Shown here piece after piece: positions 12,638 through 64,000 of a stretch of DNA of 64,000 bases. Position 1 is the stretch's first letter, and every line of letters begins with the position of its first letter. The notes below the pieces were generated by a model, which did not search any database, was not told the DNA's origin, and saw only the letters and a list, made by a program, of their open reading frames with translations. This stretch comes from Candidatus Enterousia sp. (GTDB lineage: Bacteria; Pseudomonadota; Alphaproteobacteria; Rs-D84), in the NCBI GenBank assembly GCA_045651525.1, contig JAZRSO010000031.1, positions 3,219 through 67,218 on the forward strand, in the 5' to 3' direction. A program made the translations under genes and the position numbers.

Positions 12638-12662
12638 ACAAAAAAATACGGGGATGTATATC

Positions 12663-15600
12663 ATGGCGAAAAAAATTGCACGTTTACCAGCAAAGTCAAA
12701 AACGGCATTAAAAAAAATTATTACAGTAAAAAACGCAGACGGTGACCCAGATACCACCGCAGAAATTCTAATCCAAAATAAAATCAAATACACACCAAAG
12801 GTATCTGTGATTATACCTGTGTATAATGTCGAGCAATATTTGCGTGAATGTTTGGATTCTGTTGTAAATCAGACCTTGCGTGAAATTGAAATCATCTGTG
12901 TTGATGACGGTTCAACTGACAATTCGCTGGACATCTTGAAAGAATACGCCAGCAAAGACAACCGTATTACAGTTATAAAACAACAGAATCTGCATGCAGG
13001 CGTCGCCCGCAACGCAGGCCTGTCAGTTGCCCGCGGGGAATACTTATCGTTCCTGGACAGCGACGATTTCTTTGAATTGAATATGTTGGAAGTGGCGCTG
13101 AATGCCTGCATAGTAGATAATGTAGATATGGCTATTTGGGGCGGAAAAGCTTTCGAAAATGGTAACTATAAAATTTTGAACTGGGTATTTGACACAAAAC
13201 AAATACAAAATTTAAAGCTTTTTTCAAGCGCCGACAAAGAAATTGCTGCGCGAGTATTTCAAATTATATGCGGCTGGCCAACAAATAAGCTTTACAGCTC
13301 AAAATTATTAAAAAAATCTAAATTTCGCTTTTCTTCCGCACATCATCATAACGACACATCTTTTGTGATGTCTAATGTTGTTTTTGCCACAAAAATGACG
13401 TACATACAAGACTTATATTACATTTACAGAAGAAATAGCAATAGTATTAGCGCGAACAAAGACAAACAAGTTGCTGCTTTTGCACAAAGTCTGATAGATA
13501 CATATAATAATATAAAAAAACTTAAAGTATATCCACAAATTGAGCGTAGTTTTATAAACTATGTTGTAGATTTTTCAGTTCATTATTACGACTCTCTTCG
13601 ATTTAAAGAATCTAAAGAAGAAGCAATAAAATTATGCACAGAGTTATATAATAAATTTGTTCAAGATAAGGAAGTTAGTTATTTTTATAACAAAGAAAAA
13701 TATTACAAGTTTAAAAACTCCATTTGTAACATAGACAATGAAATTCCTGTGATATTATCCTCAGACGACAATTACGCACCTTATATGTATGTAACTATGT
13801 TATCGATATTAAAAAATGCATCCAAATCTAGTTTTTATGACTTTTATTTGCTTATTCCTGGCGATTTTTCAAAAAAAAATAAAAAAAATATTTTACAATT
13901 AAAAAACAAATATAATTGTGACGTACATTTTATAAACTTGAACGATACTTTTAAAAACACTAAAATGTCTATAAAACATATTAGTTATGTGACTTATTTT
14001 AGACTTCTTGCTGCTAATTTATTACCCGCCAAATATTCGAAATGTATATATTTGGATACAGATATTTGCGTTTGCTCTGATTTGAATAAATTATACGAAT
14101 TTGATATTGAAGACAATTATGTTGCTGGCGTACCAGCAGCCGCATACATTTTTAATAAAGATATGCACATAAAAAGATTAAAACTCCAATCTGTTGATAC
14201 TTATATAAATGCCGGTGTTTTGATTATGAACTTGAAAGAAATAAGAAAAGATAATCTTACAGAAAAATTCTTGTCTTTAATGAACAATAATTACGAATCA
14301 CAAGATCAGGACATTGTAAATGTTGCTTGTTATAAACGAATAAAAATATTGCCGTTAAGATTTAATTTGATGACCAAATACGCAGGGCTATTTAATCAAA
14401 AACTGCAATCTTACACTGCGTTAAAAGAAATATACGAAGAATCAAACATAAAAGAAGCTCTAGAAAAACCTGTGATAATACATTTTGCAAATCCTGAAAA
14501 ACCATGGCAAAATAAAAAATTACCACTGTCCGATATATGGTGGTCATATGCATATGCAACTCCGTATTTTCATAAAAAACGTAATATAAAACCATACCTG
14601 CTGTTTCCGTATTATCTGATTGCGATGGTGTTTATGAAGTATATTAAAATGCCTGTGTTAAAGTTTGTTAAACATACTAAACAAATATGGTATTCGCACA
14701 GCCATCGTGGAAAAATGGATATGCTGAACAAAAATTTCACAAATATTATGCAATCAGTAACATCTGTTAAAAACGATATGACAAATCAAATAACACAGAT
14801 AAAAAATCAGCAAAGCAATCTGGAAAAACAAATTGCAGATTTAAGACACACAACTGGTGTAAAATCAAATGACTTGTCACAACAGATTGCTGATTTTCAA
14901 TCAAACGCGTCACAAAACAGCGATGATTTGGTGCAAAAAATCATCGATTTAAATACTGTAACAGAAAACAAATCAAACGACCTGTCACAGCAGATTGCTG
15001 ATTTTCAATCAAGCGCATCGCAAGGTAACGATGCCTTAGCGCAAAAAATCATCGATTTAAATACCGTGACAGAAAGTAAATCAAACGACCTGTCACAGCA
15101 GATTGCTGATTTTCAATCAAACGCGTCACAAAATAACGATGCCTTGGCGCAAAAAATCATTGATTTAATAAATACAACAAAAGACATCCCTGATACAATT
15201 GCGCAACATGCGTCAGAACAGATAAAGGCGATACAACATAATGTTGAAACATTAAATCAACAAAACAAGGACACTCAATCCAATATTATCAATACTGTTG
15301 ATCAGATTAAAAAACACGCTGATGAATTGACAGTAATGAATTCCGAACCGTATTGGGCGCATGTTTATCATGACACAACAGCTAATACAACATGGCTGAA
15401 AAACAAAAGTGTTTCACCTGGACGCTGGGCGATTTCATACATCGTGTTGTATGTGTTGTACAGAATTTTGGATGAAGTAAAGCCAAAATCTATACTGGAA
15501 TGTGGATTGGGGCAATCGTCCAAACTGACGATACAATATGCAGATTCACATAACGCAGATTTAACAATTTGCGAGAATAATCCAGAATGGTTGTCTTTCT

Positions 15601-15986
15601 TTCAACGTCAATTCCCGACCGCGGACAAATACACAACTATTCTTGATACAGAAATGGTTAATATTGTTCCAGAACATGAATCTAGAACCTATGCCAATTT
15701 TAAACCGACAATTGGAGATAAAAAATTCAATTTGGTCTTAATTGATGGGCCACTGGGAAGTCCACATTATTCACGTCCTGAAATTTTGGATATTGTGGAT
15801 AATCTGGATAAATCGTTCGTAATATTGCTGGATGACATGAACAGAATTGGCGAACAGGAAACGTGGCAATTATTAAAACAAAAATTACACAGCAAAGGCA
15901 TTGAATTCAAAGAACGCAAATATTCATCCGACAAAACAGTTGGTTTGATATGCTCGATGGATTTGGCTTATCTAACATCGTTATAA
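12663..15986 (+). CDS. giant multidomain glycosyltransferase: GT2 + GT8 + hydrophobic anchor + 3x36-aa coiled-coil repeats + SAM-methyltransferase-like C-terminal domain
   Basis: GT2: VSVIIPVYNVEQYL..VDDGSTDNS..LDSDD. GT8: IPVILSSDDNYAPY..YLDTDICV..NAGVLIMN..QDQDI. Anchor: KPYLLFPYYLIAMVFMKYI. C-terminus: ILECGLGQSS..LVLIDGP..LLDDMNR. The track ORF starts at 12654, but ATG 12663 has better SD spacing. Confidence 0.85.
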   Translation: MAKKIARLPAKSKTALKKIITVKNADGDPDTTAEILIQNKIKYTPKVSVIIPVYNVEQYLRECLDSVVNQTLREIEIICVDDGSTDNSLDILKEYASKDNRITVIKQQNLHAGVARNAGLSVARGEYLSFLDSDDFFELNMLEVALNACIVDNVDMAIWGGKAFENGNYKILNWVFDTKQIQNLKLFSSADKEIAARVFQIICGWPTNKLYSSKLLKKSKFRFSSAHHHNDTSFVMSNVVFATKMTYIQDLYYIYRRNSNSISANKDKQVAAFAQSLIDTYNNIKKLKVYPQIERSFINYVVDFSVHYYDSLRFKESKEEAIKLCTELYNKFVQDKEVSYFYNKEKYYKFKNSICNIDNEIPVILSSDDNYAPYMYVTMLSILKNASKSSFYDFYLLIPGDFSKKNKKNILQLKNKYNCDVHFINLNDTFKNTKMSIKHISYVTYFRLLAANLLPAKYSKCIYLDTDICVCSDLNKLYEFDIEDNYVAGVPAAAYIFNKDMHIKRLKLQSVDTYINAGVLIMNLKEIRKDNLTEKFLSLMNNNYESQDQDIVNVACYKRIKILPLRFNLMTKYAGLFNQKLQSYTALKEIYEESNIKEALEKPVIIHFANPEKPWQNKKLPLSDIWWSYAYATPYFHKKRNIKPYLLFPYYLIAMVFMKYIKMPVLKFVKHTKQIWYSHSHRGKMDMLNKNFTNIMQSVTSVKNDMTNQITQIKNQQSNLEKQIADLRHTTGVKSNDLSQQIADFQSNASQNSDDLVQKIIDLNTVTENKSNDLSQQIADFQSSASQGNDALAQKIIDLNTVTESKSNDLSQQIADFQSNASQNNDALAQKIIDLINTTKDIPDTIAQHASEQIKAIQHNVETLNQQNKDTQSNIINTVDQIKKHADELTVMNSEPYWAHVYHDTTANTTWLKNKSVSPGRWAISYIVLYVLYRILDEVKPKSILECGLGQSSKLTIQYADSHNADLTICENNPEWLSFFQRQFPTADKYTTILDTEMVNIVPEHESRTYANFKPTIGDKKFNLVLIDGPLGSPHYSRPEILDIVDNLDKSFVILLDDMNRIGEQETWQLLKQKLHSKGIEFKERKYSSDKTVGLICSMDLAYLTSL
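14862..15185 (+). repeat. 3 tandem 108-bp (36-aa) in-frame repeats inside the giant glycosyltransferase gene
   Basis: KSNDLSQQIADFQSNASQNSDDLVQKIIDLNTVTEN occurs three times. Unit starts are about 14862, 14970 and 15078. Confidence 0.9.
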
Positions 15987-21985: not shown

Positions 21986-22007
21986 CAAAAAAATGGAGTT
22001 GATAAAA

Positions 22008-25000
22008 ATGTTTAAAAAGCATAGTTGGGAATATAAATTATTATCAAAATCAAAGGAATTCAATAAAAAATGGTATTTACAAACATACCCTGATGTGGCC
22101 AAGGCAAAAGTTGACCCAATTGAACATTATATCAACCACGGCTGGAAAGAAGGAAGAAATCCTGGCCCAACTTTCAATACAGTCTCTTATCTTACATTAA
22201 ATCCGGACGTTCGTAATGCAAATATAAACCCATTGATTCATTGGGAACGTTTTGGCAGGCAAGAAGGACGTAACACAGGTACCAATTATGGACAAGTGCC
22301 AAAACAACAAAATAAAACCGTAAAAATTGTTGATGCCGTAATATTTCCAAAGGATGCAAAAAAATATACCTATGACACCAAAAATATTAAAACAAATAAA
22401 AAATATAAAAGAATTGCTGTTTTTGCGTCTTATTCGGGTGATGGCACAATTGCAGACTATGTTGTTTACTATTTAAAAGAATTGAAAAAGGTTTGCGACG
22501 CTATTGTTTTTGTTGCAGACAATCCAATAATCCCAGCGGAGGCCGAAAAAATAAAAGATATTGTCATATATGCCCAATTTGAACGTCATAACGAATATGA
22601 CTTTGGTTCATATAAACGCGGTTATATATGGTTAAAAAAACAAGGATTATTGAAACGTTGTGATGAATTGTTGTTGTGTAATGATTCTTGCTATGGCCCT
22701 GTGTATCCATTCAAGGATGTCTTTGATAAAATGTCTAAAAAAGATTGTGATTTTTGGGGGATGATACAAAACGATGATGTAAAATATCATTTGCAATCTT
22801 GGTTTTATCTCTTTAAACATAATGTTTTAACGTCCAGATTGTTGGATAAATTTTTTGAAAAAGTACAACATCAAAATAGTTTTTGGGATTATGTTTTTAA
22901 ATATGAATTTGAACTAACAAGATTCTTAATAGACAACGGGTTTGTCGCAGACGCTTTTCTAGATTTAAAATTAAAAGATTTAGAATGGCTCTATACAAAA
23001 AGTGGATACGGCAATATAACTGTCGCTCCCCTGACATTGATTCAAAATTACAACTTCCCATTTATTAAGATAAAATGCTTTACCAATGGTTTTACATATG
23101 CTTTAGAAGAACAGCCTAGACAAGTTTTAGATTTCTTAAAAACAGCAAATCGAATATTGTATGATTTGATTATAAAAGATCTAAAACGCAGAAAGGTTTA
23201 TTCAAATATTCTGAATACAGATATAGATTTTCAGATAAAAAATCACGACATAATATCGTTTGATATATTTGATACATTATTAATACGTCCGTATGTTCAG
23301 CCAACTGATTTGTTTTATCATATGGAAAAGATTTATAATATTCCTGGATTCGCTGACGCTCGTATAAAAGCCGAATTATACGCCAGAGAAAAATCAAATA
23401 AAAAAGATATAACATTCGATGAAATATATGAAAATCTATTGCCAAAATATCAAAAATTAAAAGCAACAGAATTGCAAATGGAACAAAATTGTTTACAAGC
23501 AAATCCGTTGGTTTTTGATATTTATCAAAAAGCACTCAAACAAAACAAAACGATCATTATTGTATCTGATATGTACTTGTCTTCAAAATTTTTAAAACAA
23601 GTGTTACAACAAAAAGGATATGAAAAAATTGATGACATTTATGTTTCGGGGGAATATGGAAAAACAAAGGGCGACGGCAGCCTGTTTGAACATATATTGA
23701 AAAAACTTGCTATAAAACCCGAAAAAATGTTGCATATTGGCGACAATCACTACAGCGACATAAAAAAACCAAGAGAATACGGTATAAGTGCATATCAAGT
23801 ACCAAAATATATTGACTTATTCTTTATGCATGGTGGCAATTTAAAATACAAGCAATTTTATGAAACTCAGCCAGATTTTATGCGCAGTTATATTGTGGCT
23901 TTGATTGCACAAAATCAAATGACCAACAAAATGTCTTATTGGCAACAAATTGGTTATAGTTTGGCAGGCCCCTTATGTTTGGGTTATACGCAAATGATAG
24001 CCAAAGAAACAAAACTAAATGATATTGATACATTATTATTCGTTTCACGCGATGGTTATTTATTACAAAAAGCATACAATAAAATTTGCAATAAACCCGT
24101 CGAAAATCGATACATATATGCACCTAGAATATTAAATCTGAAATTATTTGGGGATCATGGAAATCAACCTCATTATATTCAATCGTATATGGATATATTA
24201 TTAAAAAACATTCCGGATTTAAATATTAACACAAACAAACAAACAATAGACTTCAAACAACGTAAGATTGTTGATTGGCATACAAAAAACAAAACTGAAT
24301 ACGAAGCTTATATTAAAACGTTAAAAATTTACGGAACAAATATCGCATCAGTAGATATGACAACTGGCGCATATACATCGCAAAAAATATTAGAGCGAGT
24401 ATTCAAAGATAGATATAAAATGTCTTTTTATAGTGCTTGTTTCGTTAAACGTCCAGAATATAAACATGTTTCTTATTTGCCGGATTTAATATTTCCTGCT
24501 GCACAAGAAAATATTATCAATTTAACAGAATTGTTAATAACAGCACCAGAACTGCCTGTGGTTGATATAAAAGATAAAAAACCTGTATACAAAAAATCAA
24601 ATGCACATGATGAATATCGTATAAAAATTATACAATCCATAGAACAAGGCGTGATGAAATTTATAGATGATTTCTGTATAAAATGCGGCACTATAATAAA
24701 AGACGATATGTGCGAAATTCCTGTACATGATGTCTGGTTTTTACTGGAGTCCTATTGTAGGTTTTTATCAAATACTGATAAATCATATCTTAAACATGTG
24801 TATCACAGTGCAGATATTGAGAATAAAGAATTTGTTTCAATGTTAGATAAGATAATACAACAGTACGAGCCAGAACAATCTGTACATATGCAACACACAC
24901 AAGAGCATGTACAAAAACAAAAAAATAAGAGACACAAATTAAAGCCATATTTATTATTTCCATACTATTTACTGGCTACTCTGGTTATGAAATATATTTT

Positions 25001-25025
25001 ATTACCAATAAAAAAACGAAAATAA
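22008..25025 (+). CDS. giant polysaccharide-modification protein: N-terminal NPDV/EGR repeats + rhamnan-synthesis-F (RgpF)-like domain + HAD-like domain + C-terminal anchor
   Basis: YPDVAKAKVDPIEHYINHGWKEGRNP and NPDVRNANINPLIHWERFGRQEGRN. RgpF-like: IAVFASYSGDG..LLCNDSCYGPVYPF..DFWGM. HAD: ISFDIFDTLLIRPY..IGDNHYSDI. Ends with KPYLLFPYYLLATLVMKYILLPIKKRK. The track ORF starts at 21993, but ATG 22008 has SD GGAG. Confidence 0.8.
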   Translation: MFKKHSWEYKLLSKSKEFNKKWYLQTYPDVAKAKVDPIEHYINHGWKEGRNPGPTFNTVSYLTLNPDVRNANINPLIHWERFGRQEGRNTGTNYGQVPKQQNKTVKIVDAVIFPKDAKKYTYDTKNIKTNKKYKRIAVFASYSGDGTIADYVVYYLKELKKVCDAIVFVADNPIIPAEAEKIKDIVIYAQFERHNEYDFGSYKRGYIWLKKQGLLKRCDELLLCNDSCYGPVYPFKDVFDKMSKKDCDFWGMIQNDDVKYHLQSWFYLFKHNVLTSRLLDKFFEKVQHQNSFWDYVFKYEFELTRFLIDNGFVADAFLDLKLKDLEWLYTKSGYGNITVAPLTLIQNYNFPFIKIKCFTNGFTYALEEQPRQVLDFLKTANRILYDLIIKDLKRRKVYSNILNTDIDFQIKNHDIISFDIFDTLLIRPYVQPTDLFYHMEKIYNIPGFADARIKAELYAREKSNKKDITFDEIYENLLPKYQKLKATELQMEQNCLQANPLVFDIYQKALKQNKTIIIVSDMYLSSKFLKQVLQQKGYEKIDDIYVSGEYGKTKGDGSLFEHILKKLAIKPEKMLHIGDNHYSDIKKPREYGISAYQVPKYIDLFFMHGGNLKYKQFYETQPDFMRSYIVALIAQNQMTNKMSYWQQIGYSLAGPLCLGYTQMIAKETKLNDIDTLLFVSRDGYLLQKAYNKICNKPVENRYIYAPRILNLKLFGDHGNQPHYIQSYMDILLKNIPDLNINTNKQTIDFKQRKIVDWHTKNKTEYEAYIKTLKIYGTNIASVDMTTGAYTSQKILERVFKDRYKMSFYSACFVKRPEYKHVSYLPDLIFPAAQENIINLTELLITAPELPVVDIKDKKPVYKKSNAHDEYRIKIIQSIEQGVMKFIDDFCIKCGTIIKDDMCEIPVHDVWFLLESYCRFLSNTDKSYLKHVYHSADIENKEFVSMLDKIIQQYEPEQSVHMQHTQEHVQKQKNKRHKLKPYLLFPYYLLATLVMKYILLPIKKRK

Positions 25026-34652: not shown

Positions 34653-34729
34653 GCATCCATAGCTTAACTGGATAAAGCATCTGACTACGGATCAGAAGAC
34701 TGAGGGTTCGAATCCTTCTGGATGCGCCA
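34653..34729 (+). tRNA. tRNA-Arg (anticodon ACG), CCA encoded
   Basis: Hand-folded cloverleaf. Acceptor GCATCCA/TGGATGC, D arm GCTT..AAGC, anticodon arm TCTGA-CTACGGA-TCAGA, T arm GAGGG-TTCGAAT-CCTTC, 77 nt. Followed by hairpin + T7. Confidence 0.92.
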
Positions 34730-38892: not shown

Positions 38893-38933
38893 TTTTTTGC
38901 CTTCCTATATTTTTTATAATGTTTTATTAAAAC

Positions 38934-39271
38934 GTCGGGTTTCTGGTGCCAGGTACCCGACAGACCCCGCAATAACTTAAACGAATGTGGTCAACAATCG
39001 CCAACCATATTCAAGCCATTATTAGGCAGCCATTGCAATGCGAACATTGTCGTTCGCAGCGATTCTATCGCCATTCAGTTTTTAGTCGGCTTTTAACGAC
39101 GCCATGTCGGATTCAACCAATTTGTCTTTCATCATCTGTCGAATCTATGTCAGCCCCATAACCAAATATGACACAAATCATATCAAGTAATGGTGGAGCT
39201 GTGGGGTACCGCCCCCCAGTCCAAAATGACTATTGCACAACGGCTTCAGAATCATCATCACTTGCGTGACG
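38934..39271 (-). ncRNA. ssrA: tmRNA (ssrA), circularly permuted two-piece type
   Basis: Minus strand. The acceptor piece ends ..GGACUGGGGGGCGGUACCCCACAGCUCCACCA at 39191. The coding piece starts GGGGCUGACAUAGAUUCGAC at 39157. Tag frame GCUGCGAACGACAAUGUUCGCAUUGCAAUGGCUGCC UAA UAA = AANDNVRIAMAA** (39060..39019). The G3:U pair is present in the acceptor stem. Confidence 0.88.
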
Positions 39272-39276
39272 GGGTA

Positions 39277-40347
<1,071 letters not shown>

Positions 40348-56123: not shown

Positions 56124-56894
56124 ATGTCTAAAATAATCAAACTATTTGAACAGCATACAAACTGTGATGACGTTTTGCATATGGTATACGGCATATCCAG
56201 TAATGAATACTTTGACTGTGTTTTTGTTGTGCCCCACTGGGATATATATAAAATATTTACAGACAACGACGTAACTATTGAATTATTTGCAAAAACAGAC
56301 GATACAACCGCATACGAAATCAAACACAATAACAAAAGATATTTATATATAACATTGTCTATGGGCGCGCCAAACATCATCGATTTTTGTTTGGCGTGCT
56401 ATAAACTGAATTGCGATAAATATGTATTCTTGGGTTCGGTCGGGTCTTTGGTTCCAGAAATACGAATTGGAGATTTTATTATACCGGAATATTCAATATC
56501 TGGCGATGGCGCGTCACTGTATCTGAACGACACACTGGACACATCAAATATGTTCAAACCTGCATATTCTGACGCAACATTATCAAAAACAATCAAAGAT
56601 ATTTGCGCGTCTCAAAATATCACAGTCGCAGATGGCACGCCAATTTCTGTTGACAGTATATTTTGCGAATATGCGCACCTGGATGAATTTATAAAGATGG
56701 GTGCGAATGCAATTGAAATGGAAAGCGCCGCGTTTTTTGCAGCAATGAAATACATTAAAAAATCTGCGGCTGCTGTTTTGGTTGTGTCTGACAATACGTC
56801 GGCAAATCAGCCGCTGATGGACAAAGATGATTCCACACGCACAAAATACCGCACCGCCCGTCAAAATGTACAACAGATATTAAAACAGATATAA
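56124..56894 (+). CDS. nucleoside phosphorylase family protein (PNP_UDP_1 fold)
   Basis: FLGSVGSL, GDFIIPEYSISGDGAS, ANAIEMESAAFF. Starts 1 nt after the MFS stop. Confidence 0.75.
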   Translation: MSKIIKLFEQHTNCDDVLHMVYGISSNEYFDCVFVVPHWDIYKIFTDNDVTIELFAKTDDTTAYEIKHNNKRYLYITLSMGAPNIIDFCLACYKLNCDKYVFLGSVGSLVPEIRIGDFIIPEYSISGDGASLYLNDTLDTSNMFKPAYSDATLSKTIKDICASQNITVADGTPISVDSIFCEYAHLDEFIKMGANAIEMESAAFFAAMKYIKKSAAAVLVVSDNTSANQPLMDKDDSTRTKYRTARQNVQQILKQI

Positions 56895-56956: not shown

Positions 56957-58105
56957 ATGAAAAAAATCTTGTTATTGACGGGTATTTGTATTTTATCTGC
57001 ATGTGGTGGTGGCGGTGGTTCAACACCAATCAGCGGTGGTGCAACAGCCGGCAAACCTGCCGAAGGGCGACCAAATGTAAAAGAAGACGGCTTTCCACGC
57101 GAAACATGGATCAACAACAGTAAAGTTACATCTATGATGTCACAGATATTCATTCCAAAAGGCAATGTCGGCGATGGATATAACATGTACACATTGCAAG
57201 ATGTAAAGTTTATATCCAGTGACGATACACCAACAGATGAAGACTATATAACGTTTGATATAAATGATAAAACTGGTGTAATTGAAAAATTAATAATACA
57301 TGATGATACAGATACAATAACTATGGAACGCGATAGAGATAATATATTTAATATCCCTGGGTACAAGTATCAAATTCCATATATGTCAGATGGTGAACCC
57401 AAAGTGTGGACATCTAAAATTTTCTTGACCAAGATTACAGACGAAAGCGCAATTATTGCCCAAATTACAGATGAAAATATACCCGCAGATAAAAAAGATG
57501 CTATTCTGGCGAATTTTGATAAAGGCGAATGGGGCAGTTACTTATTAACCAGCACATTCCAAATGTTCGGTAAAGATATTGGCAGCAAAAACGGTCTGCA
57601 ATATTCTGACTTTGGGTATAATACCACAAAAGTATCTGATGGTCGGCTGTTTGATTACGATGTTGTTGCCGGTGGGTATACAATATACCAAATTCCAGCA
57701 GATAAGATAGCCAGTCAATCGCTTACTTTTACAGGAAAAGCGGTTGGAACTATCAGCTATACCGATACAGAAGGTAAGCAAATAAGTGAAATTTCAACAG
57801 ATAACAATGCGACAAAGTTAGTATTTAATAACGGCAAAGAAACGCTAACCATGCCATTTAACGAATATTATACAGTTATTGTTGAAAAAGAAGGCGATAA
57901 TTCAAATATCAAGTTTACTGATTGGGAAGGCAAAGATTCAAAATTCAAATTTACAAATGAAACAGCGACACCTGACAATGCATGGATTATGTATTACGGC
58001 AAAGACAATAATCCATCTGAAGCAGTTGGAACCATTGAACACAGCGAAGATTCTGAAAACAGACCTACATTTAATGCAGGATTTGGTGCGCAAGTTACAC
58101 AATAA
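56957..58105 (+). CDS. surface/periplasmic lipoprotein, C-terminal TbpB-like beta-barrel suspected
   Basis: Lipobox LSACGGGGGS. C-terminal LQYSDFGY..VVAGGY..LTFTGKAVGTISY pattern is reminiscent of TbpB/fHbp-type lipoprotein barrels. Confidence 0.6.
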   Translation: MKKILLLTGICILSACGGGGGSTPISGGATAGKPAEGRPNVKEDGFPRETWINNSKVTSMMSQIFIPKGNVGDGYNMYTLQDVKFISSDDTPTDEDYITFDINDKTGVIEKLIIHDDTDTITMERDRDNIFNIPGYKYQIPYMSDGEPKVWTSKIFLTKITDESAIIAQITDENIPADKKDAILANFDKGEWGSYLLTSTFQMFGKDIGSKNGLQYSDFGYNTTKVSDGRLFDYDVVAGGYTIYQIPADKIASQSLTFTGKAVGTISYTDTEGKQISEISTDNNATKLVFNNGKETLTMPFNEYYTVIVEKEGDNSNIKFTDWEGKDSKFKFTNETATPDNAWIMYYGKDNNPSEAVGTIEHSEDSENRPTFNAGFGAQVTQ

Positions 58106-58137
58106 AAAAGACCGCCGAAACGGCGGTTTTTTATATC

Positions 58138-58731
58138 TTATCGAACACAGCCCGAATTGCACACACCTGTTTCCTTTAATGCACGACGCAGACAATTATA
58201 GTGCTGAACCCTGTCACGCAGATAATGATTATACAATGTTTTGTTATTACTTATCATTGTAACTGGGACACCCCTGTCCAGACAGCCAGACACAACCAAT
58301 GGACCGTCATCATAATGCATATCTGGTTTGATAATGTCTTTTAATATATCGGACTTTTTGCCATGCTGATCATAAACCTGATTAAACGAACATTTGATAC
58401 CTGCACGACGTAATTGATTAAATGTCTTTTCTGGCTGCTTGTATTTACGTTCTGTGACAAATAAAACCTCTAAATCCGGACGCGCCAATAAATCATTTAA
58501 AAGATAATGTATCTTTTTATCTAATACCGGCATCGAATACAGTAAATCATCGCCAAATAATTCAGACAAATTTTCAATTACAGTAATATTATCATACGAT
58601 TTATATATATCCCAATCTGTTGGTTTTACATACGGCGCATTGGCACGACGAAAAGCCTCTTGATACAAAGGGGTCATATCGAATATTACGTTATCTAAAT
58701 CCAGTGTTATTATTTTCTTGCTCATTTTCAA
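58138..58731 (-). CDS. HAD-superfamily nucleotidase (5'(3')-deoxyribonucleotidase-like)
   Basis: N-terminal DxDxV motif ITLDLDNVIF. Confidence 0.6.
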   Translation of the reverse strand: MKMSKKIITLDLDNVIFDMTPLYQEAFRRANAPYVKPTDWDIYKSYDNITVIENLSELFGDDLLYSMPVLDKKIHYLLNDLLARPDLEVLFVTERKYKQPEKTFNQLRRAGIKCSFNQVYDQHGKKSDILKDIIKPDMHYDDGPLVVSGCLDRGVPVTMISNNKTLYNHYLRDRVQHYNCLRRALKETGVCNSGCVR

Positions 58732-58790
58732 CCCTTATCATTTTGTGGGCTGATTATAACAACAAAATTTAGAATTCCAACTGTTATTTA

Positions 58791-59573
58791 TCAAACTATT
58801 TCAAGTTCAATTCCAACAATACCATATTTAGATTCCATGTCAGAATCATAAAACTTTGAAATCGCGGACATCAGTTTATCAAGGCTTAGGAACCCCGTTC
58901 TGGGAAAACTGATTTTAGTGGATAAATCTGCAAAACTTTTGGCAATATGCAACCGAACAATCTTGCATTTCATATAATCCGACGGATTTTGTGCATTATA
59001 AAATAAAATAATATCATTATTGCGCATCTTGCGACGCTTTTCATCATACAGACGCAGTTCTATATCTTTATCACCAGACTTTATCATATCGTAATAGGTG
59101 CTTTGCAAACTCATAGAAAATCGGCACGACAAATTTGGCACAATGTGCGTGGCACAAAATTCACGCATATCAGCCATCGGTGTAATTTCTGGTTTTAACA
59201 AATCGTTTGCGTCCAACCAAACAACAGAAATATCTTCACTACGTTTTTCAACAAATTGCAAATCCATATCAGATGGCACATGTACAACAAAGAAATGATG
59301 TTCTTCGGCATACGCGCCACGCTTTTCTGCACGCGCAATATCTGTATGACGAAACGAATACGGCACTGGAATTTCAACCAAGTTATCCATCAAGGCTGTT
59401 GCGCCTGTACCTAATTCTTCGGTCAGTTCGCGTCGCAAGGCAGTTTTAAAATCTTCGCCATCGTCCAAACGACCGCCAATAAAACCATAACCATTTTCGC
59501 CATAACGCAACATTGCAATACGCCCGTCACGCACAGGTATTATATACGCAGAAAAAGACATTTCTTTTATCAT
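58791..59573 (-). CDS. Nudix hydrolase fused to a C-terminal ASCH (PUA-like) domain
   Basis: Nudix box GGRLDDGEDFKTALRRELTEELG. C-terminal YYDMIKSGDKDIELRLYDEKRRKMRNNDIILF..IVRLHIAKSFADL fits the ASCH pattern. Confidence 0.7.
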   Translation of the reverse strand: MIKEMSFSAYIIPVRDGRIAMLRYGENGYGFIGGRLDDGEDFKTALRRELTEELGTGATALMDNLVEIPVPYSFRHTDIARAEKRGAYAEEHHFFVVHVPSDMDLQFVEKRSEDISVVWLDANDLLKPEITPMADMREFCATHIVPNLSCRFSMSLQSTYYDMIKSGDKDIELRLYDEKRRKMRNNDIILFYNAQNPSDYMKCKIVRLHIAKSFADLSTKISFPRTGFLSLDKLMSAISKFYDSDMESKYGIVGIELEIV

Positions 59574-60076
59574 TTGTCACCCCTTGGGTTAAATGGTTTG
59601 ATTGACAGTACGGTTATTTCCAATTCGCCAGACGGCATAACAACATTCGCCTGACCACCAACAGACAGCCCAATCAACGGCAATACAATCGGCATATTAT
59701 ATGCGTATATTTTATTTGAAATATCTTCGCCACCAAGTGGTACAATACTGAAAGTATTTTGCGTTATCGCACCAGAGTCTTGATTTTCTTGGGAAACAGT
59801 TACCGTACAATACAACCCAACACAATCTGTGTTCAAATTTGCGGACAATGGCGCAATTTGCATATTGTGAAATTCTGTAATCAAGTCCGCCAAATGACGT
59901 TCTGTCTGTTTTTCTTCACGCGTTAAATGTTCATATGCAAAGTTGTCATGCCATGAATTTGTATCTTGTGTATATGCCGCAGTTTTATCAGCACGAATTT
60001 TATCAAGCGTTACATTCAGTTCACGAATTCGCTTTTCTGCATCTGAAAAATATTCACGCGTTACAAACAGTTTCAT
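59570..60076 (-). CDS. GreA/GreB-family (Gre-factor-like) protein
   Basis: N-terminal coiled coil with WHDNFAYEH (compare GreA DLKENAEYH). C-terminal IYAYNMPIVLPLIGLSVGGQANVVMPSGELEITVLSI matches the GreA C-terminal domain. 4-nt overlaps at both ends. Confidence 0.7.
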   Translation of the reverse strand: MKLFVTREYFSDAEKRIRELNVTLDKIRADKTAAYTQDTNSWHDNFAYEHLTREEKQTERHLADLITEFHNMQIAPLSANLNTDCVGLYCTVTVSQENQDSGAITQNTFSIVPLGGEDISNKIYAYNMPIVLPLIGLSVGGQANVVMPSGELEITVLSIKPFNPRGDK

Positions 60077-60543
60077 TTTTGTTTCTGTTCACTTTGATAT
60101 GATGTTAATTCAGAATACATCTCGCCATGTTTTAGGCACGACAAAGATATACGCGTTGGCGTTATCACGTTTTTAAGTTTTGCAACTTCATCCAATGTAA
60201 AATACCGCATTTCAACGCACTTGCCAGATTCACAGTTACGAATTACGCCTGTGTAACGTGATACCTCAAAATAAAAATCAAAACTTTCTGTGCGACTGGC
60301 CAGATTACTGGTCACATGAACCAGTTTAATATCATTTGGCGCAATATTAATATCCAGTTCTTCTTTTGCCTCGCGTATGGCGGCGGCACGCGCGGTTTCG
60401 CCCTGCTCTATATGTCCGGCTGGCAAAACCCACCAACCGCCATCATAATTAAAAAAGCCATCATTACGAAAGAACAATAATACTTTGTCATCTTGCTTGA
60501 TAATCAGGTTTATTACACCTTTGAACATTGCGCGTTGTGACAT
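60073..60543 (-). CDS. Nudix hydrolase
   Basis: Nudix box GHIEQGETARAAAIREAKEELDI. Confidence 0.8.
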   Translation of the reverse strand: MSQRAMFKGVINLIIKQDDKVLLFFRNDGFFNYDGGWWVLPAGHIEQGETARAAAIREAKEELDINIAPNDIKLVHVTSNLASRTESFDFYFEVSRYTGVIRNCESGKCVEMRYFTLDEVAKLKNVITPTRISLSCLKHGEMYSELTSYQSEQKQK

Positions 60544-60566
60544 TTTATACCCCCGTTTTACATGTG

Positions 60567-60836
60567 TTACCGGCCACTGATGCCATATACTATTTTAAAG
60601 TTCCAACGCTTTTTTCTGCGGACAGAAAAATGTGGTCTGTCGGAATCAATTACAAAAACTATTTTGCCAACCCAGATACGAATATATCGTGCATGAATTT
60701 TCTTAATCTTGGTGCGAACATGAGTGCGCATTTCAGTACCGTCGGTGTATTCAACCTCGACACTGCGACCAAAACCGTATTTGTTATTATCAAAATCCAA
60801 ACCGTATTCAACGAATATTTTTTTAACAGCTGGCAT
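60567..60836 (-). CDS. hypothetical 89-aa protein, first gene of the Nudix operon
   Basis: ORF only. Basic C-terminus and no recognisable motif. Confidence 0.4.
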   Translation of the reverse strand: MPAVKKIFVEYGLDFDNNKYGFGRSVEVEYTDGTEMRTHVRTKIKKIHARYIRIWVGKIVFVIDSDRPHFSVRRKKRWNFKIVYGISGR

Positions 60837-60949
60837 TTGCGCTCTCTTTTTTAAGATTGTATTTCACAAACATTTAAAAGTCTAGTTTTTTAAATTCCTT
60901 GCGACATATTTTTTTATGTGTTATTTTTTAGACCAAAGGCAACAAGACA

Positions 60950-62566
60950 ATGTTAATTGTAAAGAATCTTGATAAATCTTTTGATGGAAATGAAATATTT
61001 AAAAACCTGAACTTTTCTGTTCAAGACGGGGAAAAAGTTGCCGTTGTAGGTTTAAATGGCGCGGGGAAATCTACGTTATTCAGAATATTACTGAATCAAA
61101 TCGATTGCGATAACGGTGAATTTTATATGGGCAAAAATCCGCGTATTGGTTGGATGCCCCAGACAGTTGATGAACTGGATTTACCTGATGATGTTGTTGT
61201 GTATGACTTTCTGCGTTCTGGTCGTCCATTGGCAGACATTGAACAAAGAATGGCAGAAATTTATAACGAAATGGCCAATGGTAATGAATCCGAAGAGTTA
61301 TTGCAAAAATTAGGCGCATGTCAGTCTGAATACGAATACTGGGATGGATATTCTGCGGAATCTGAGCTTGACGCCATGATTGATAAAATGGGTATTGATC
61401 GTCAAAATCTGAACAAAAAACTGGGCGAACTGTCGGGCGGTCAGAAATCAAAAATATCTTTTATCAGAACCCTGTATACACGCCCAAGCATTTTATTCTT
61501 GGACGAACCGACAAACCACTTGGACGCAAGCAGTCGTGATTGGATGACAGAATATCTGATTGCAACAGACGCGTCTGTTGTCTTTATTTCGCACGACGAA
61601 GAATTTATATCCAAGGTCGCCGATAAAACACTGTATCTTGATACAATGACCCATACCGGCACACTGTATGGTTTTGGTTATCAACGCTTTTTGCGGACTT
61701 TGGCAGAAACAAACGAAAGTTTGGAAAAGCAGCTGCAAAAACAGATGCATGAGATAAATCGTATTCAGTCTTTTATCGATAAACAACGTGGCAAATCTGG
61801 AAAATTAGCAAAACAGGCACAAAGTCGCGAAAAATTACTGGAAAAGAAATTAAAAAATCTGGTCGCTGCACCACAAGAAAAAAAAGATATTGATTTAGAA
61901 CTGACACCTAATCGCGAAGAAGATGTTTTGCCAATCACTGTTGAAAAGTTAAACTTTGCATACACGCCAAATAAAAAAATTATCAAGAATCTGACTTTTT
62001 CTTTGAATCGCGGTGAAAAGTTTTTAATCGTTGGTGAAAATGGCGCAGGAAAATCAACATTATTAAAACTGATATATAATATTCTGACACCGTGTGACGG
62101 CGTTATTCGTATCGGCAAAAAGACTGATTTGGGTTACTATGCCCAGGAATACGAAACATTGAAGTCTGATATGAGCATCTTGGAAAACGCATCAAGTGCA
62201 ACGAATATCAGCACATCAAAGTTGCGTTCTGTATTAAATCATTTTAATTTCGTCGGTGACAAGGTAAACCAAACAGTAAAAACCATGTCGCCTGGGGAAC
62301 GCAGTCGTCTTGAACTGGCAAAACTGTGTTTAAGTGGTGCAAATGTTTTGTTACTGGACGAACCAACAAATCACTTGGACGTTGCGACCAAGAAAACAAT
62401 CGCAAAAAGTTTTTCAGAATATGGCGGCACATTGGTAATCGTCAGCCATGATTTAGAATTCTTGGAACATTTGGGCATAGACAGAATGCTGATGTTGCCC
62501 AGCGGTCGTTTACAGTTTTTTGATGAAAATATTGTCCGCAGATACATGGACCAAGAAAACAATTAA
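60950..62566 (+). CDS. ABC-F family ATPase (two NBDs, no TM)
   Basis: GLNGAGKST/LSGGQKSK/LFLDEPTNHLD and GENGAGKST/MSPGERSR/LLLDEPTNHLD, separated by a charged linker. Confidence 0.9.
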   Translation: MLIVKNLDKSFDGNEIFKNLNFSVQDGEKVAVVGLNGAGKSTLFRILLNQIDCDNGEFYMGKNPRIGWMPQTVDELDLPDDVVVYDFLRSGRPLADIEQRMAEIYNEMANGNESEELLQKLGACQSEYEYWDGYSAESELDAMIDKMGIDRQNLNKKLGELSGGQKSKISFIRTLYTRPSILFLDEPTNHLDASSRDWMTEYLIATDASVVFISHDEEFISKVADKTLYLDTMTHTGTLYGFGYQRFLRTLAETNESLEKQLQKQMHEINRIQSFIDKQRGKSGKLAKQAQSREKLLEKKLKNLVAAPQEKKDIDLELTPNREEDVLPITVEKLNFAYTPNKKIIKNLTFSLNRGEKFLIVGENGAGKSTLLKLIYNILTPCDGVIRIGKKTDLGYYAQEYETLKSDMSILENASSATNISTSKLRSVLNHFNFVGDKVNQTVKTMSPGERSRLELAKLCLSGANVLLLDEPTNHLDVATKKTIAKSFSEYGGTLVIVSHDLEFLEHLGIDRMLMLPSGRLQFFDENIVRRYMDQENN

Positions 62567-62610: not shown

Positions 62611-63402
62611 TTAACGGCGACGGCCAGTTTGTGTCAACTTGTGTTCTACAACACGGGCAATATCAACAACTGTGCATTCACCACCACAAAAGTATGAAAA
62701 ACGTTCGTTGTAACCAGATGCAATAACTGGTTTACCGGCTGCGTCTGGGACGAATGTTTTTCCTGTACCGTCCACAAAGCCAATGCCAATGAACATTTTT
62801 GTGTGACCGGGAAAACGGACAACAGCACCCGCACCAATACGTTTAAAATCTTCAACCGTTGGGTTTTTAAAGATTGTGTTTGGCACACTGTCACTGGCGA
62901 AATAATTCAGCAAACAATCACCATTGTACAAGGCTTCACGACGACCTTTGTCTTTCGCAAATGGGCGTGCGGCAAAATTATTTTCACGGAACTTTAAACG
63001 ACGGGTCGCATCGACAATCGCTTCGGTAACACTTTTGTTACAATAGTTATAGTCCAAGCCAAACATTTTGCCAGGCGTCGCCAACCCACGATTAATAGAA
63101 TCAATGTCTAACGCAAGTTCTTTGGCGGCTGTTTCACCAAACAGTATTGCAATTTCTTTGTTGCTCATATTAGCCCAATCAACAGGTTTAAAGCTTGATG
63201 GGTTAAAATAGTCGCGCTTCAACGTACGGTTTGGACCCGTGTTACCAGCAACATACACAGCAGAATCTTGTTGTTCTGCAAATGTTTCGGACTTGTCACG
63301 ACTGCCGATTGCGAATGTCAACAAAAATGCAGCCAGACCAACGGTCGTATGTGTAAATGCTTTGGAAGACAGAATTTTTTTCCAATCAATTTTTTTTACC
63401 AT
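62611..63402 (-). CDS. membrane-anchored protein with a conserved Cys/His pair, possible papain-like (NlpC/P60- or amidase-type) hydrolase
   Basis: Start ATG 63402 (SD AAAAGGA). TM HTTVGLAAFLLTFAIG. Conserved with its neighbour: DYNYCNKSVTEAIVDATRRLKFR and PGHTKMFIGIGFVDGTGKTFVPDAAGKPVIAS. Confidence 0.6.
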   Translation of the reverse strand: MVKKIDWKKILSSKAFTHTTVGLAAFLLTFAIGSRDKSETFAEQQDSAVYVAGNTGPNRTLKRDYFNPSSFKPVDWANMSNKEIAILFGETAAKELALDIDSINRGLATPGKMFGLDYNYCNKSVTEAIVDATRRLKFRENNFAARPFAKDKGRREALYNGDCLLNYFASDSVPNTIFKNPTVEDFKRIGAGAVVRFPGHTKMFIGIGFVDGTGKTFVPDAAGKPVIASGYNERFSYFCGGECTVVDIARVVEHKLTQTGRRR

Positions 63403-63427
63403 TTTATTATCCTTTTCTTTATCTGGT

Positions 63428-64000
63428 TTAGCGTACATGACGTTGAACATCATTCTGCAGTTTATATTCTACGATTTTTGGAACATCGATAATTGTGCAG
63501 TTTGTCCAATCAAAATATCTAAACAACTGATCCGTATCATCAGACGCGATAACAGGACGCCCGCGTGAATCAGCTACAAATGTACGACCATCTTTATCGA
63601 TATAGCCAATACCCATGTACATATAGCAATGACGGCCACGACGGATAATGGATCCTGCACTGGCACTGGCAATTGATAAGGCGTTCGGTTTTCTGATAAT
63701 TGTATTCGGAACACTGTCCGCCTCAAAGAACCGTACCATGTGTTTTGCATTATGCATTGCGCGTTGGAAAGATTCTCTGGCATTACAGCGTTCAACAGAA
63801 AACGGCGCGACACTGGTGTTATCACGACGGAAACGCAGGCGTGATACCGCATCAGTGTATGCATTAACGACTGCTTCGGCGCAATAATCACGTTCTGCGC
63901 CAAACATCTGATCGGCTGTTGCGGAACCAGAATTCAATGAATCCATATCCATCGCATATTCTTTGGCGGCTGTTTTACCTAAGACCTCGCCAACACGCTG
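63428..64000 (-). CDS. paralog of 62611..63402, 5' end beyond the right edge
   Basis: ERDYCAEAVVNAYTDAVSRLRFR and GRHCYMYMGIGYIDKDGRTFVADSRGRPVIAS. The frame stays open to position 64000 (..VGEVLGKTAAKEYAMDMD aligns with ..ILFGETAAKELALDID of the paralog). Confidence 0.6.
   Translation of the reverse strand, partial: QRVGEVLGKTAAKEYAMDMDSLNSGSATADQMFGAERDYCAEAVVNAYTDAVSRLRFRRDNTSVAPFSVERCNARESFQRAMHNAKHMVRFFEADSVPNTIIRKPNALSIASASAGSIIRRGRHCYMYMGIGYIDKDGRTFVADSRGRPVIASDDTDQLFRYFDWTNCTIIDVPKIVEYKLQNDVQRHVR

Follow-up and report, generated by a model that had tools for sequence, protein, structure and literature searches.

A Gre-family factor with a WHDN tip encoded among Nudix hydrolases in Candidatus Enterousia, and its possible part in clearing non-canonical nucleotides

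A 64,000-nucleotide stretch of DNA from Candidatus Enterousia sp. (assembly GCA_045651525.1, contig JAZRSO010000031.1, positions 3,219 to 67,218 of the forward strand; the whole stretch is referred to here as the window) contains a minus-strand operon in which a protein of the Gre family, called GreL below, is encoded between two Nudix hydrolases, one of them fused to an ASCH domain. These three genes, Nudix1, GreL, and Nudix-ASCH, are the part of the operon that is conserved in relatives, and the tip of GreL places the protein in what appears to be a separate branch of the Gre family. Comparison with related loci suggests that GreL, as a factor entering the secondary channel of RNA polymerase (RNAP), may work with hydrolases that clear non-canonical and possibly chain-terminating nucleotides, and that the window carries a tolerance version of such a system from which the producer is missing. 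We give this reading a probability somewhat below one half (about 0.45).

The GreL operon and its proteins

An earlier reading of the sequence alone (the sequence-only reading) had placed five open reading frames (ORFs) on the minus strand; all are present, and they form a real operon. The first gene (60567..60836, minus strand, as are the other four) encodes a basic, DUF3977-like protein of 89 amino acids (aa; PF13122, 26.1 bits against a cut-off of 25) and ends 23 nucleotides (nt) before Nudix1 (60073..60543), a MutT/NudB-like Nudix hydrolase of 156 aa (Pfam NUDIX, 64.5 bits). The stop codon of Nudix1 overlaps the start of GreL (59570..60076; 168 aa), which matches the C-terminal Pfam model GreA_GreB (PF01272) with 34.4 bits against a cut-off of 26.9; the stop of GreL in turn overlaps the start of the 260-aa Nudix-ASCH fusion (58791..59573; NUDIX 44.3 bits, ASCH 42.4 bits). 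The last gene (58138..58725) encodes a predicted phosphatase of the HAD superfamily. The Nudix, Gre-like, and Nudix plus ASCH domains named in the sequence-only reading are borne out by Pfam scores above the cut-offs, and the ATGA overlaps of 4 nt that it described among the three middle genes are present at both junctions, Nudix1/GreL and GreL/Nudix-ASCH. Only 4 of the 42 same-strand junctions in the window are overlaps of this length, and two of those four lie in the GreL operon, whose core is translationally coupled. The coding density of the window is 92%, and many of its junctions are short.

A promoter-like site, a consensus match only (60856..60884, minus strand; TAGACT-17-TACAAT, 9 of 12 positions), lies 5' of the 89-aa gene in a divergent intergenic region shared with an ABC-F gene. 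At the other end, a strong bidirectional intrinsic terminator (58106..58132; a 12-bp stem that includes 6 GC pairs, and a run of T on each strand) closes the GreL operon together with a convergent operon for an MFS protein, a nucleoside phosphorylase/nucleosidase of the PNP_UDP_1 family (PNP), and a lipoprotein. The PNP gene (56124..56894, plus strand; 256 aa; PF01048, 87.3 bits) lies 1.2 kb from the GreL operon; it has no equivalog-level match, and its homologues in the clusters of the sister species L017, L020, L023, L024, and L025 are 51% identical. An Rfam search of the whole window revealed no riboswitch or leader near the operon.

GreL has the two-domain Gre architecture. In its AlphaFold2 (AF2) model, which has a mean predicted local distance difference test score (pLDDT) of 86.6, helices 7-36 and 42-70 form a coiled coil whose tip loop spans residues 37-41 and which is followed by a beta-rich, globular C-terminal domain, and a Foldseek search with this model returns GreA, RNAP-bound Gfh1, and GreB as the top matches over about 160 columns, with E values from 2e-11 to 5e-9. 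Like GreA and GreB (1grj, 2p4v), GreL combines these two domains in a protein of the same size, with an antiparallel coiled coil long enough for the active site and two acidic residues at its tip. In sequence the relation is distant: GreL aligns with E. coli GreA at 24 bits and about 21-25% identity, scores 35.6 bits against the GreA equivalog TIGR01462 (cut-off 139), lies far below the cut-offs of NF001261 and all the GreA/GreB models, and has no match to the N-terminal Gre Pfam model. It also differs from GreA and GreB in that its gene is in an operon with nucleotide-metabolising enzymes, and in its tip.

The canonical tip reads G-D41-x-x-E44-N-A-E-Y, whereas that of GreL is (G/Q)-D38-T-N-S-W-H-D44-N-F-A-Y; the tip loop is 3 residues larger, 5 residues rather than 2 stand between the acidic ones, and an invariant W-H-D-N-F-A-Y takes the place of L-K-E-N-A-E-Y. 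Within the family, whose tip can be written D38-T-N-x-W42-H-D44-N-F-A-Y-E49, D38 and the run from W42 to E49 are invariant across the order Rs-D84. An ungapped alignment with E. coli GreA sets S41 opposite D41 and D44 opposite E44, and the sequence-only reading had concluded that a single acidic tip residue is retained. However, the tip is GDTNTWHDN in a sister clade (clade B, below) and GDSSVWHDN in Myxococcota, and because these relatives read GD at the place of D38, this invariant residue is the counterpart of the canonical GD. GreL therefore keeps both acidic residues around a 3-residue insertion that holds the invariant Trp-His.

A pattern scan of species-representative genomes also found the WHDN tip in metagenome-assembled genomes (MAGs) of Myxococcota, Gammaproteobacteria, Bacilli, and Patescibacteria, as well as in some labelled Rickettsiales. 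When 1.84 billion representatives were searched exhaustively with a GreL profile, there were 875 matches at E <= 1e-3 and 135 at E <= 1e-10; among the best 150 representatives at 50% identity, 129 have WHDN and one has the canonical tip (GDLRENAEY). The spread of the tip across phyla and these counts therefore argue that GreL belongs to a distinct and broad Gre subfamily, a WHDN-tip clade that, on the sequence evidence, spans several phyla. Since the tip is strictly conserved on a full-length coiled coil, its acidic and aromatic residues would point to work in the active site of RNAP and not just to a tethering role.

Gfh1 of Thermus and Rnk resemble GreL in having a Gre fold with a non-canonical tip, and RNAP-bound Gfh1 (3aoi_X) is the second-best structural match of GreL. 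Both proteins are precedents for changes at the tip that turn a cleavage factor into something else. The fold is nevertheless all that they have in common with GreL, at 15-16% identity; Rnk in addition has a short coiled coil, and its structure (3bmb) ranks far lower against GreL. We know of neither a WHDN tip nor a neighborhood of Nudix, kinase, or viperin genes for Gfh1 or Rnk.

The Nudix box (GX5EX7REUXEEXGU) is intact in both hydrolases, as G43-x5-E49-x7-R57-E-A-K-E-E-L-D-I in Nudix1 and as G34-x5-E40-x7-R48-E-L-T-E-E-L-G-T in Nudix-ASCH. The solved structures closest to Nudix1 are those of MutT (3hhj) and NudB (2o1c), and the protein is 73-84% conserved across clade A, the Rs-D84 clade that includes the window. 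An intact box and a proposed removal of aberrant nucleoside triphosphates (NTPs), the classic role, liken Nudix1 to MutT, NudB, and NudG; it differs from these in being translationally coupled to a Gre-family protein and accompanied by a second Nudix enzyme fused to ASCH. No equivalog for MutT (8-oxo-dGTPase), RppH, or NudC is matched above its cut-off, the best scores being 43.9 against 245 for Nudix1 and 30.7 against 118 for Nudix-ASCH.

In Nudix-ASCH, the Nudix domain occupies approximately residues 14-129 and the ASCH domain residues 154-260. The latter, the C-terminal 107 residues, resembles ASCH-domain proteins (PH0355/PF0455, E. coli YqfB) in passing the ASCH model (PF04266; gathering cut-off 21.2 bits), and it matches the structure of PH0355 (2z0t) at 6.9e-16. 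A difference is that ASCH is here fused to Nudix, a fusion confined in the searches made to this alphaproteobacterial lineage, from which all 158 clusters of the family come. An assignment of the domain as a YqfB-type N4-acylcytidine amidohydrolase was considered and is unsupported, the YqfB structure not being among the PDB matches at E <= 0.1; the ASCH motif GDKDIELR appears to have Glu where the Lys/Thr/Glu triad of YqfB has Thr.

The HAD protein is a peripheral and recently recruited member of the operon. Its gene probably starts at ATG 58725, follows a 65-nt gap, and has a promoter-like site of its own (58753..58780, minus strand; TTGGAA-16-TATAAT with an extended TG, 10 of 12 positions). 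Apart from the window, it is linked to GreL only in the nearest relatives, L009 and L010, where it is 97% identical. (Designations of this type denote the loci from other genomes and metagenomes that were compared.) The sequence-only reading had called it a nucleotidase with a DxDxV motif. The motif is there, as DLDNV (motif I), but the nucleotidase assignment is unsupported: all HAD models score below their cut-offs (the best 18.1 bits against 27, and e(P4) 17.6 against 216), and the sole match to a solved structure is to the N-terminal motif of the sugar phosphatase TM_1254.

The 89-aa protein has no match by sequence in the PDB, and its single-sequence AF2 model (pLDDT 52) is unusable. It is 76-83% identical in L001, L015, L016, and L026-28, across clades whose GreL proteins are only 41-56% identical, which is unusually strong conservation for a small basic protein. 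Its gene opens the two types of operon described below or closely precedes them; in clade B (L026:4199-4462), about 130 nt separate it from the Tmk-like gene, the first of the viperin operon.

Linkage of GreL to nucleotide enzymes

Conservation of the operon was followed by tblastn mapping and junction analysis in 17 species representatives of clade A (L009-L025). GreL lies within 4 kb of Nudix1, Nudix-ASCH, or both in 15 of the 17, and in 13 they form one tight operon; the three genes occur in at least six orders, with junctions of -4 to +17 nt throughout. The order seen in the window, Nudix1-GreL-Nudix-ASCH with or without the DUF3977-like gene in front, is found in L013 and L015, on the truncated contigs L014 and L019, and in the metagenome loci L001-3. 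In five species a PNP-family gene is inside the operon, which reads Nudix1-PNP-GreL-Nudix-ASCH (L017, L020, L021, L023, L025). Nudix1 and Nudix-ASCH precede GreL directly in L011 and by 3.7 kb in L018, GreL is convergent with Nudix-ASCH-PNP-Nudix1 in L024, and L016 has DUF3977-Nudix1-GreL. The nearest relatives of the window (L009, L010) have GreL-Nudix-ASCH-HAD and no Nudix1, and GreL stands alone in L012 and L022. In L010 the cluster is in a syntenic chromosomal context and not on a mobile island.

A linkage that has outlasted repeated rearrangement argues for selection. The co-occurrence on which the sequence-only reading had made its case depend is therefore real, but its five-gene module has to be reduced: the core of Nudix1, GreL, and Nudix-ASCH recurs, and the HAD and 89-aa genes fall outside, so that the conserved unit has three genes and not five.

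Other arrangements of the individual genes were also seen. In one species (L007:4638-6492 and L012), GreL follows a gene for a Pol-beta-type nucleotidyltransferase (NTP_transf_2) and one for a 188-aa protein, which replace the Nudix genes; the nucleotidyltransferase is another nucleotide-handling partner of GreL. Nudix-ASCH genes without GreL are located in variable, defence-island-like regions of other Rs-D84 genomes (L083:10001-10831, L084:9582-10786, L085:10001-10798). Their neighbors include a Type I restriction-modification (R-M) system with GmrSD and DNA methyltransferases (MTases); an integrase, Bro-N, and an SLFN-like helicase with another Nudix protein; and prophage-like genes with Mrr and an ADP-ribosylglycohydrolase.

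In sister clade B (L026-28, L031, L033, L034, L038), whose GreL is 41-48% identical to that of the window, the gene belongs to a long operon encoding a Tmk-like kinase, a Peptidase_U32 protein, an MTase, a viperin homologue, in some cases a Nudix protein and a further MTase, a CYTH protein, in some cases an MBL hydrolase (Apyc1-like), GreL, and an APH-type kinase. In genomes of about 0.9 Mb, this operon comprises 8-10 genes (L026:4199-11373, L038:146-9219, L086:1-7963, L087, L088), at times with the DUF3977-like gene at its head, and three of these loci (L086-L088) are independent metagenome contigs. The radical-SAM enzyme scores 142-155 bits against the PADLOC model 'pVip associated with kinases' and 135-149 bits against the NCBIfam model viperin_w_prok, by far its best match there, yet below the cut-off of 180 bits; every one of its top PDB matches is a viperin. 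The kinase matches the viperin-associated PADLOC models VakA and PDC-M51B. When metagenomes were searched from the viperin side, the three close relatives that were recovered all had GreL, and the remaining 63 loci were generic radical-SAM loci and uninformative. One contig of this group, L027 (JAZURO010000129.1), is labelled Eubacteriales bacterium and is probably mis-binned; its proteins are 99-100% identical to those of L026, an Alphaproteobacteria MAG.

The proteins of the window are connected with this viperin operon in several ways. Orthologues of Nudix1 (74-75% identical) lie immediately upstream of it, in divergent orientation, in L031, L038, and L088, and Nudix1 is also a 35%-identical paralogue of the Nudix protein inside the viperin operon of L038. 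Beside Nudix1, L038 has a full-length Nudix-ASCH orthologue (56% identical); in L031 and L088, which have an ASCH-containing gene there, the match is confined to the ASCH part (40%). In L086, the C-terminal end of a clade-A-type GreL lies 140 bp upstream of the kinase, and a clade-B GreL is present as well. This makes the two clades paralogues, and a single locus can hold both. The likeness to kinase-associated pVip systems thus consists of a clade-B operon that joins GreL to a viperin homologue and a VakA/PDC-M51B-like kinase and is flanked by orthologues of the window's Nudix proteins; the window itself differs in having neither a viperin nor a Tmk-like kinase. To our knowledge, the U32, CYTH, MBL, APH, Gre-like, and Nudix-MTase members are outside the pVip systems that have been described.

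A similar association is found in other phyla, where 26 loci with 103 same-strand neighbor ORFs were sampled. Radical-SAM enzymes resembling MoaA or viperin account for 15 of the 103 and kinases resembling Tmk or deoxynucleoside kinases (dNK) for about 11, and the typical order is GreL, kinase, radical SAM, and second P-loop kinase, each joined to the next by a -4 overlap. A gammaproteobacterial MAG (L042) has Maf-GreL-Tmk-Nudix/MTase-CYTH, and in L049, a Staskawiczbacteria MAG, the gene next upstream of GreL encodes a Nudix-MTase-CYTH fusion. One protein, P0242 (L152:229-2449), is a natural fusion of a WHDN-tip Gre protein with a Tmk-like kinase of the same kinase family, and the gene 3' of it encodes a Nudix-like-MTase with full-length homology to its counterparts in L042 and L049. 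Thus the recurrent partners of WHDN-tip Gre proteins, namely the kinase, the NTP-acting radical-SAM enzyme, Nudix or Nudix-MTase, CYTH, and Maf, all make, modify, or destroy nucleoside phosphates. By sequence comparison, the Myxococcota radical-SAM enzymes fall in the NTP-acting branch and belong to neither the MoaA nor the viperin family proper.

The Myxococcota operon GreL-kinase-MoaA-like radical SAM-second P-loop kinase was seen at L047:6485-9268 and in L040, L045, L048, L051, L059, and L064, and its first kinase scores 157 bits against the PADLOC candidate PDC-M51B. The P0242 locus also has an N6/N4 DNA MTase and is convergent with an adjoining type III-B (Cmr) CRISPR locus. A second protein, P0214 (374 aa), also joins Gre to a P-loop module, and the C-terminal half of this fusion is unclassified. 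The genes of about 550-700 aa upstream of GreL in distant loci were considered as ABC-F genes throughout and turned out to be heterogeneous (BipA, UvrD-like, an ABC exporter, PRTase-CE, Nudix-MTase-CYTH); the PRTase-CE gene is beside GreL in L056.

Proposed role and competing explanations

Because the partners of GreL are nucleotide enzymes, the comparative evidence points to abnormal NTPs as the target of the system, and the viperin link makes chain terminators the leading candidate. The likeliest substrate class would be the chain-terminating or non-canonical NTPs made by viperin-like radical-SAM enzymes, of the 3'-deoxy-3',4'-didehydro (ddhNTP) type. As we picture it, Nudix1 and Nudix-ASCH would hydrolyse an abnormal NTP before it meets RNAP, and the product might be broken down further by the PNP-family enzyme in relatives or by the HAD phosphatase here. 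When such a nucleotide had nonetheless been incorporated, the coiled coil of GreL would enter the secondary channel of RNAP, and its tip (D38 ... W42-H43-D44-N45) would promote the excision of that nucleotide from the 3' end of the transcript, after which transcription could resume. The window operon would then be the 'tolerance' cassette of a larger module, without a producer, an arrangement that would suit an obligate importer of nucleotides. The genes with their folds and motifs, their conserved linkage, the association of WHDN-tip Gre genes with NTP-making and NTP-breaking enzymes across phyla, and the Gre-kinase fusions are shown by the data; we infer that GreL binds RNAP and stimulates cleavage, what kind of nucleotide is involved, and that the outcome is protection and not poisoning. 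Among the roles that the sequence-only reading had offered, nucleotide-pool sanitation and transcription-coupled removal of non-canonical nucleotides fit this comparative context best, while cap removal and nucleotide depletion drew no specific support.

Several observations weigh against this proposal. In tblastn searches with clade-B queries, neither the 64-kb window nor the clade-A loci showed a viperin, a kinase, a CYTH gene, or any other producer, and the link to chain terminators therefore comes from the homology of partners and not from local content. Nudix1, Nudix-ASCH, the ASCH domain, and the HAD protein are without an assigned substrate. In several species (L004, L012, L022, L029-L037) GreL has no Nudix partner, and in L083-L085 Nudix-ASCH has no GreL. 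The radical-SAM partners in Myxococcota are MoaA-like, with weaker similarity to viperin, so that clades may differ in their chemistry. The Gre-kinase fusions would be explained equally well if GreL tethered enzymes to RNAP with some other purpose. In compact genomes even unrelated genes lie close together, and GreL could be the sole Gre factor of its own genome, engaged in ordinary proofreading.

The last point can be extended into an explanation in which GreL is the only, fast-evolving Gre factor of a reduced genome and the Nudix, PNP, and HAD proteins are ordinary salvage or house-cleaning enzymes, co-expressed with it but not mechanistically coupled. A possible housekeeping precedent for the kinase-U32-MTase-Gre linkage is Bacillus, in which canonical greA presumably adjoins udk and U32/MTase genes (yrrM-yrrN-yrrO-udk-greA). 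Genomes of about 0.9 Mb rarely hold two Gre factors (PMC12306168), and a tblastn search with E. coli GreA and GreB queries, covering the window and the flanks available for the compared loci, found only GreL itself; a second Gre-type gene was seen in L086 alone. The high coding density of the window with its many short junctions would agree with such a view, as would the position of some family members among housekeeping genes (ClpB/S1/adk in L004, BipA in L035, pheT in L063). However, GreL falls far below the GreA equivalog cut-offs, and the WHDN clade is distinct from canonical GreA and common to phyla that presumably also have the canonical protein, Myxococcota among them. The linkage with Nudix genes has persisted through at least six rearrangements, and the association with kinase, radical-SAM, and Nudix-MTase genes has recurred independently across phyla, fusions included. 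Moreover, two GreL paralogues occupy one locus in L086, and the GreL profile search, indexed on the invariant 12-residue word that any member would share, found none on the Nudix-ASCH contigs of 913,930 bp, 325,993 bp, and 179 kb, the first of which is genome-sized for the lineage. Because of the two paralogues in L086 and the absence from the 914-kb contig, GreL is probably not simply the housekeeping greA, and we consider this explanation unlikely.

A role in biological conflict has also been considered, with GreL as the RNAP-docking subunit of a nucleotide-based defence that tethers enzymes which poison or starve a phage-hijacked RNAP, or that blocks cleavage in the manner of Gfh1; the Nudix proteins would be its regulators or off-switches, and the window a degenerate remnant or a depletion variant. 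Viperin together with a kinase is established as a system against phages, and in clade B these two proteins match the PADLOC models for pVip, VakA, and PDC-M51B; Gre-kinase fusions also exist, one of them adjoining a type III-B CRISPR locus. PRTase-CE beside GreL in L056 and the defence-island-like settings of Nudix-ASCH, with R-M, GmrSD, Mrr, and integrases, point the same way. Furthermore, GreA/B-C domains are predicted RNAP sensors in the TPR-GreA/B-C-PIN systems (Kaur et al. 2021, PMC8195603), a precedent for the recruitment of the Gre C-domain into predicted RNAP-directed conflict systems; these are, however, single large proteins that combine the C-domain only with TPR, PIN, and variable effectors, whereas GreL has the complete Gre fold on its own, with a conserved tip and with nucleotide enzymes as partners. 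The window itself has no producer or effector gene and hence nothing to deliver. The check for known defence systems proposed in the sequence-only reading, made with PADLOC-DB v2 on the five window proteins, came back without a known system; Nudix1 and Nudix-ASCH match the single-gene candidate PDC-S07 weakly, and GreL, the HAD protein, and the 89-aa protein match nothing. The strict conservation of the acidic tip suggests catalysis at the active site and not tethering alone, and the cluster in L010 is part of the syntenic chromosome. On balance, such a role seems quite improbable.

Still less can be said for an action at RNA 5' ends, in which the Nudix and ASCH domains would strip non-canonical caps (NAD, Np4N) or a 5' pyrophosphate and GreL would modulate how RNAP initiates with non-canonical nucleotides. 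In Nudix-ASCH, the Nudix half weakly matches models of the RppH and Nudt16 type, ASCH is known in general as a PUA-like RNA-binding fold, and CYTH, MTase, and Nudix proteins of the wider system recall the enzymology of capping and decapping; yet the RppH-type scores all lie far below the cut-offs (30.7 against 118), the secondary channel is structurally remote from the RNA 5' end, and the recurrent partners, kinases resembling those of nucleoside monophosphates and NTP-acting radical-SAM enzymes, point to free nucleotides rather than RNA ends. We judge this very improbable.

Clearing of non-canonical nucleotides by GreL and its hydrolases thus remains the reading that we prefer, and a bolder form of it may be stated, which we hold to be doubtful: WHDN-tip Gre proteins could be a new class of RNAP factors against nucleotide analogues, excising viperin-type terminators (ddhNMP and its relatives) from the 3' ends of host transcripts, so that the multisubunit host RNAP would be immune to the cell's own product and the single-subunit polymerases of phages would still be poisoned. 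The window operon of Nudix1, GreL, and Nudix-ASCH, with HAD and PNP as further members, would in that case be a stand-alone resistance cassette with which a nucleotide-scavenging gut bacterium of reduced genome could survive terminators that come from neighbors, from phage-defending prey, or from the animal host. In full-text searches of the literature, no paper connected GreA to Nudix/ASCH, to viperin, or to kinase/radical-SAM modules, and nothing relevant came up on PDC-M51 or on CYTH, Nudix, radical SAM, and Tmk together; of related work, only the TPR-GreA/B-C-PIN systems were found. Even on a more conservative view, neither the WHDN-tip Gre clade nor its linkage with nucleotide kinases across phyla, natural fusions included, appears to have been described so far.

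If the proposal were true, it would explain how cells that make chain-terminating nucleotides or are exposed to them (viperin products, nucleoside-analogue antibiotics) keep their RNAP running; secondary-channel factors would gain a new functional class, marked by a distinctive and invariant tip; and so far unrecognised accessory genes (Gre-like, Nudix-MTase, CYTH) would be added to the viperin/kinase modules. It would also make nucleotide sanitation a key vulnerability of Rs-D84, a little-known gut lineage that imports all its nucleotides. The GreL and Nudix system is open to direct biochemical testing.

Host lineage and other features of the window

The closest relatives of GreL are in Candidatus Enterousia and in uncultured Alphaproteobacteria MAGs from the gut; in L009, GreL is 94% and the neighboring ABC-F protein 97% identical to those of the window. 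A two-piece (permuted) alphaproteobacterial tmRNA (38932-39309, minus strand; 154 bits) agrees with the Enterousia-like placement, and a tRNA-Arg(ACG) gene is located at 34653-34729 (plus strand); both are of use as taxonomic markers. Genomes of the order Rs-D84 measure about 0.75-1.0 Mb and lack the biosynthesis of nucleotides, amino acids, and lipids (PMC12306168); the order is therefore dependent on imported nucleotides. The 64-kb window represents about 7% of such a genome.

The ABC-F gene that is divergent from the GreL operon (60950-62566, plus strand) scores 405.7 bits against the NCBIfam model 'ribosomal protection-like ABC-F' (cut-off 380) and has the same position in L007/L012 and L009/L010. 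Beyond it are two tandem paralogues on the minus strand (62611-63453 and 63428-63952) with 38% identity across 171 aa and a 26-nt overlap of their ORFs; the first and longer one has no Pfam match. On the other side, the convergent operon ends in a lipoprotein-like protein (56957-58105, plus strand) with a signal peptide, a Cys, and a Gly-rich linker, which has no Pfam or NCBIfam match; distant homologues of it (23-26% identical) are found directly downstream of GreL in L029, L030, and L032. Two very large ORFs of 1110 and 1010 aa (12654-15986 and 21993-25025, both plus strand) coincide with the lowest GC content of the window, 31-34% against about 41% overall.

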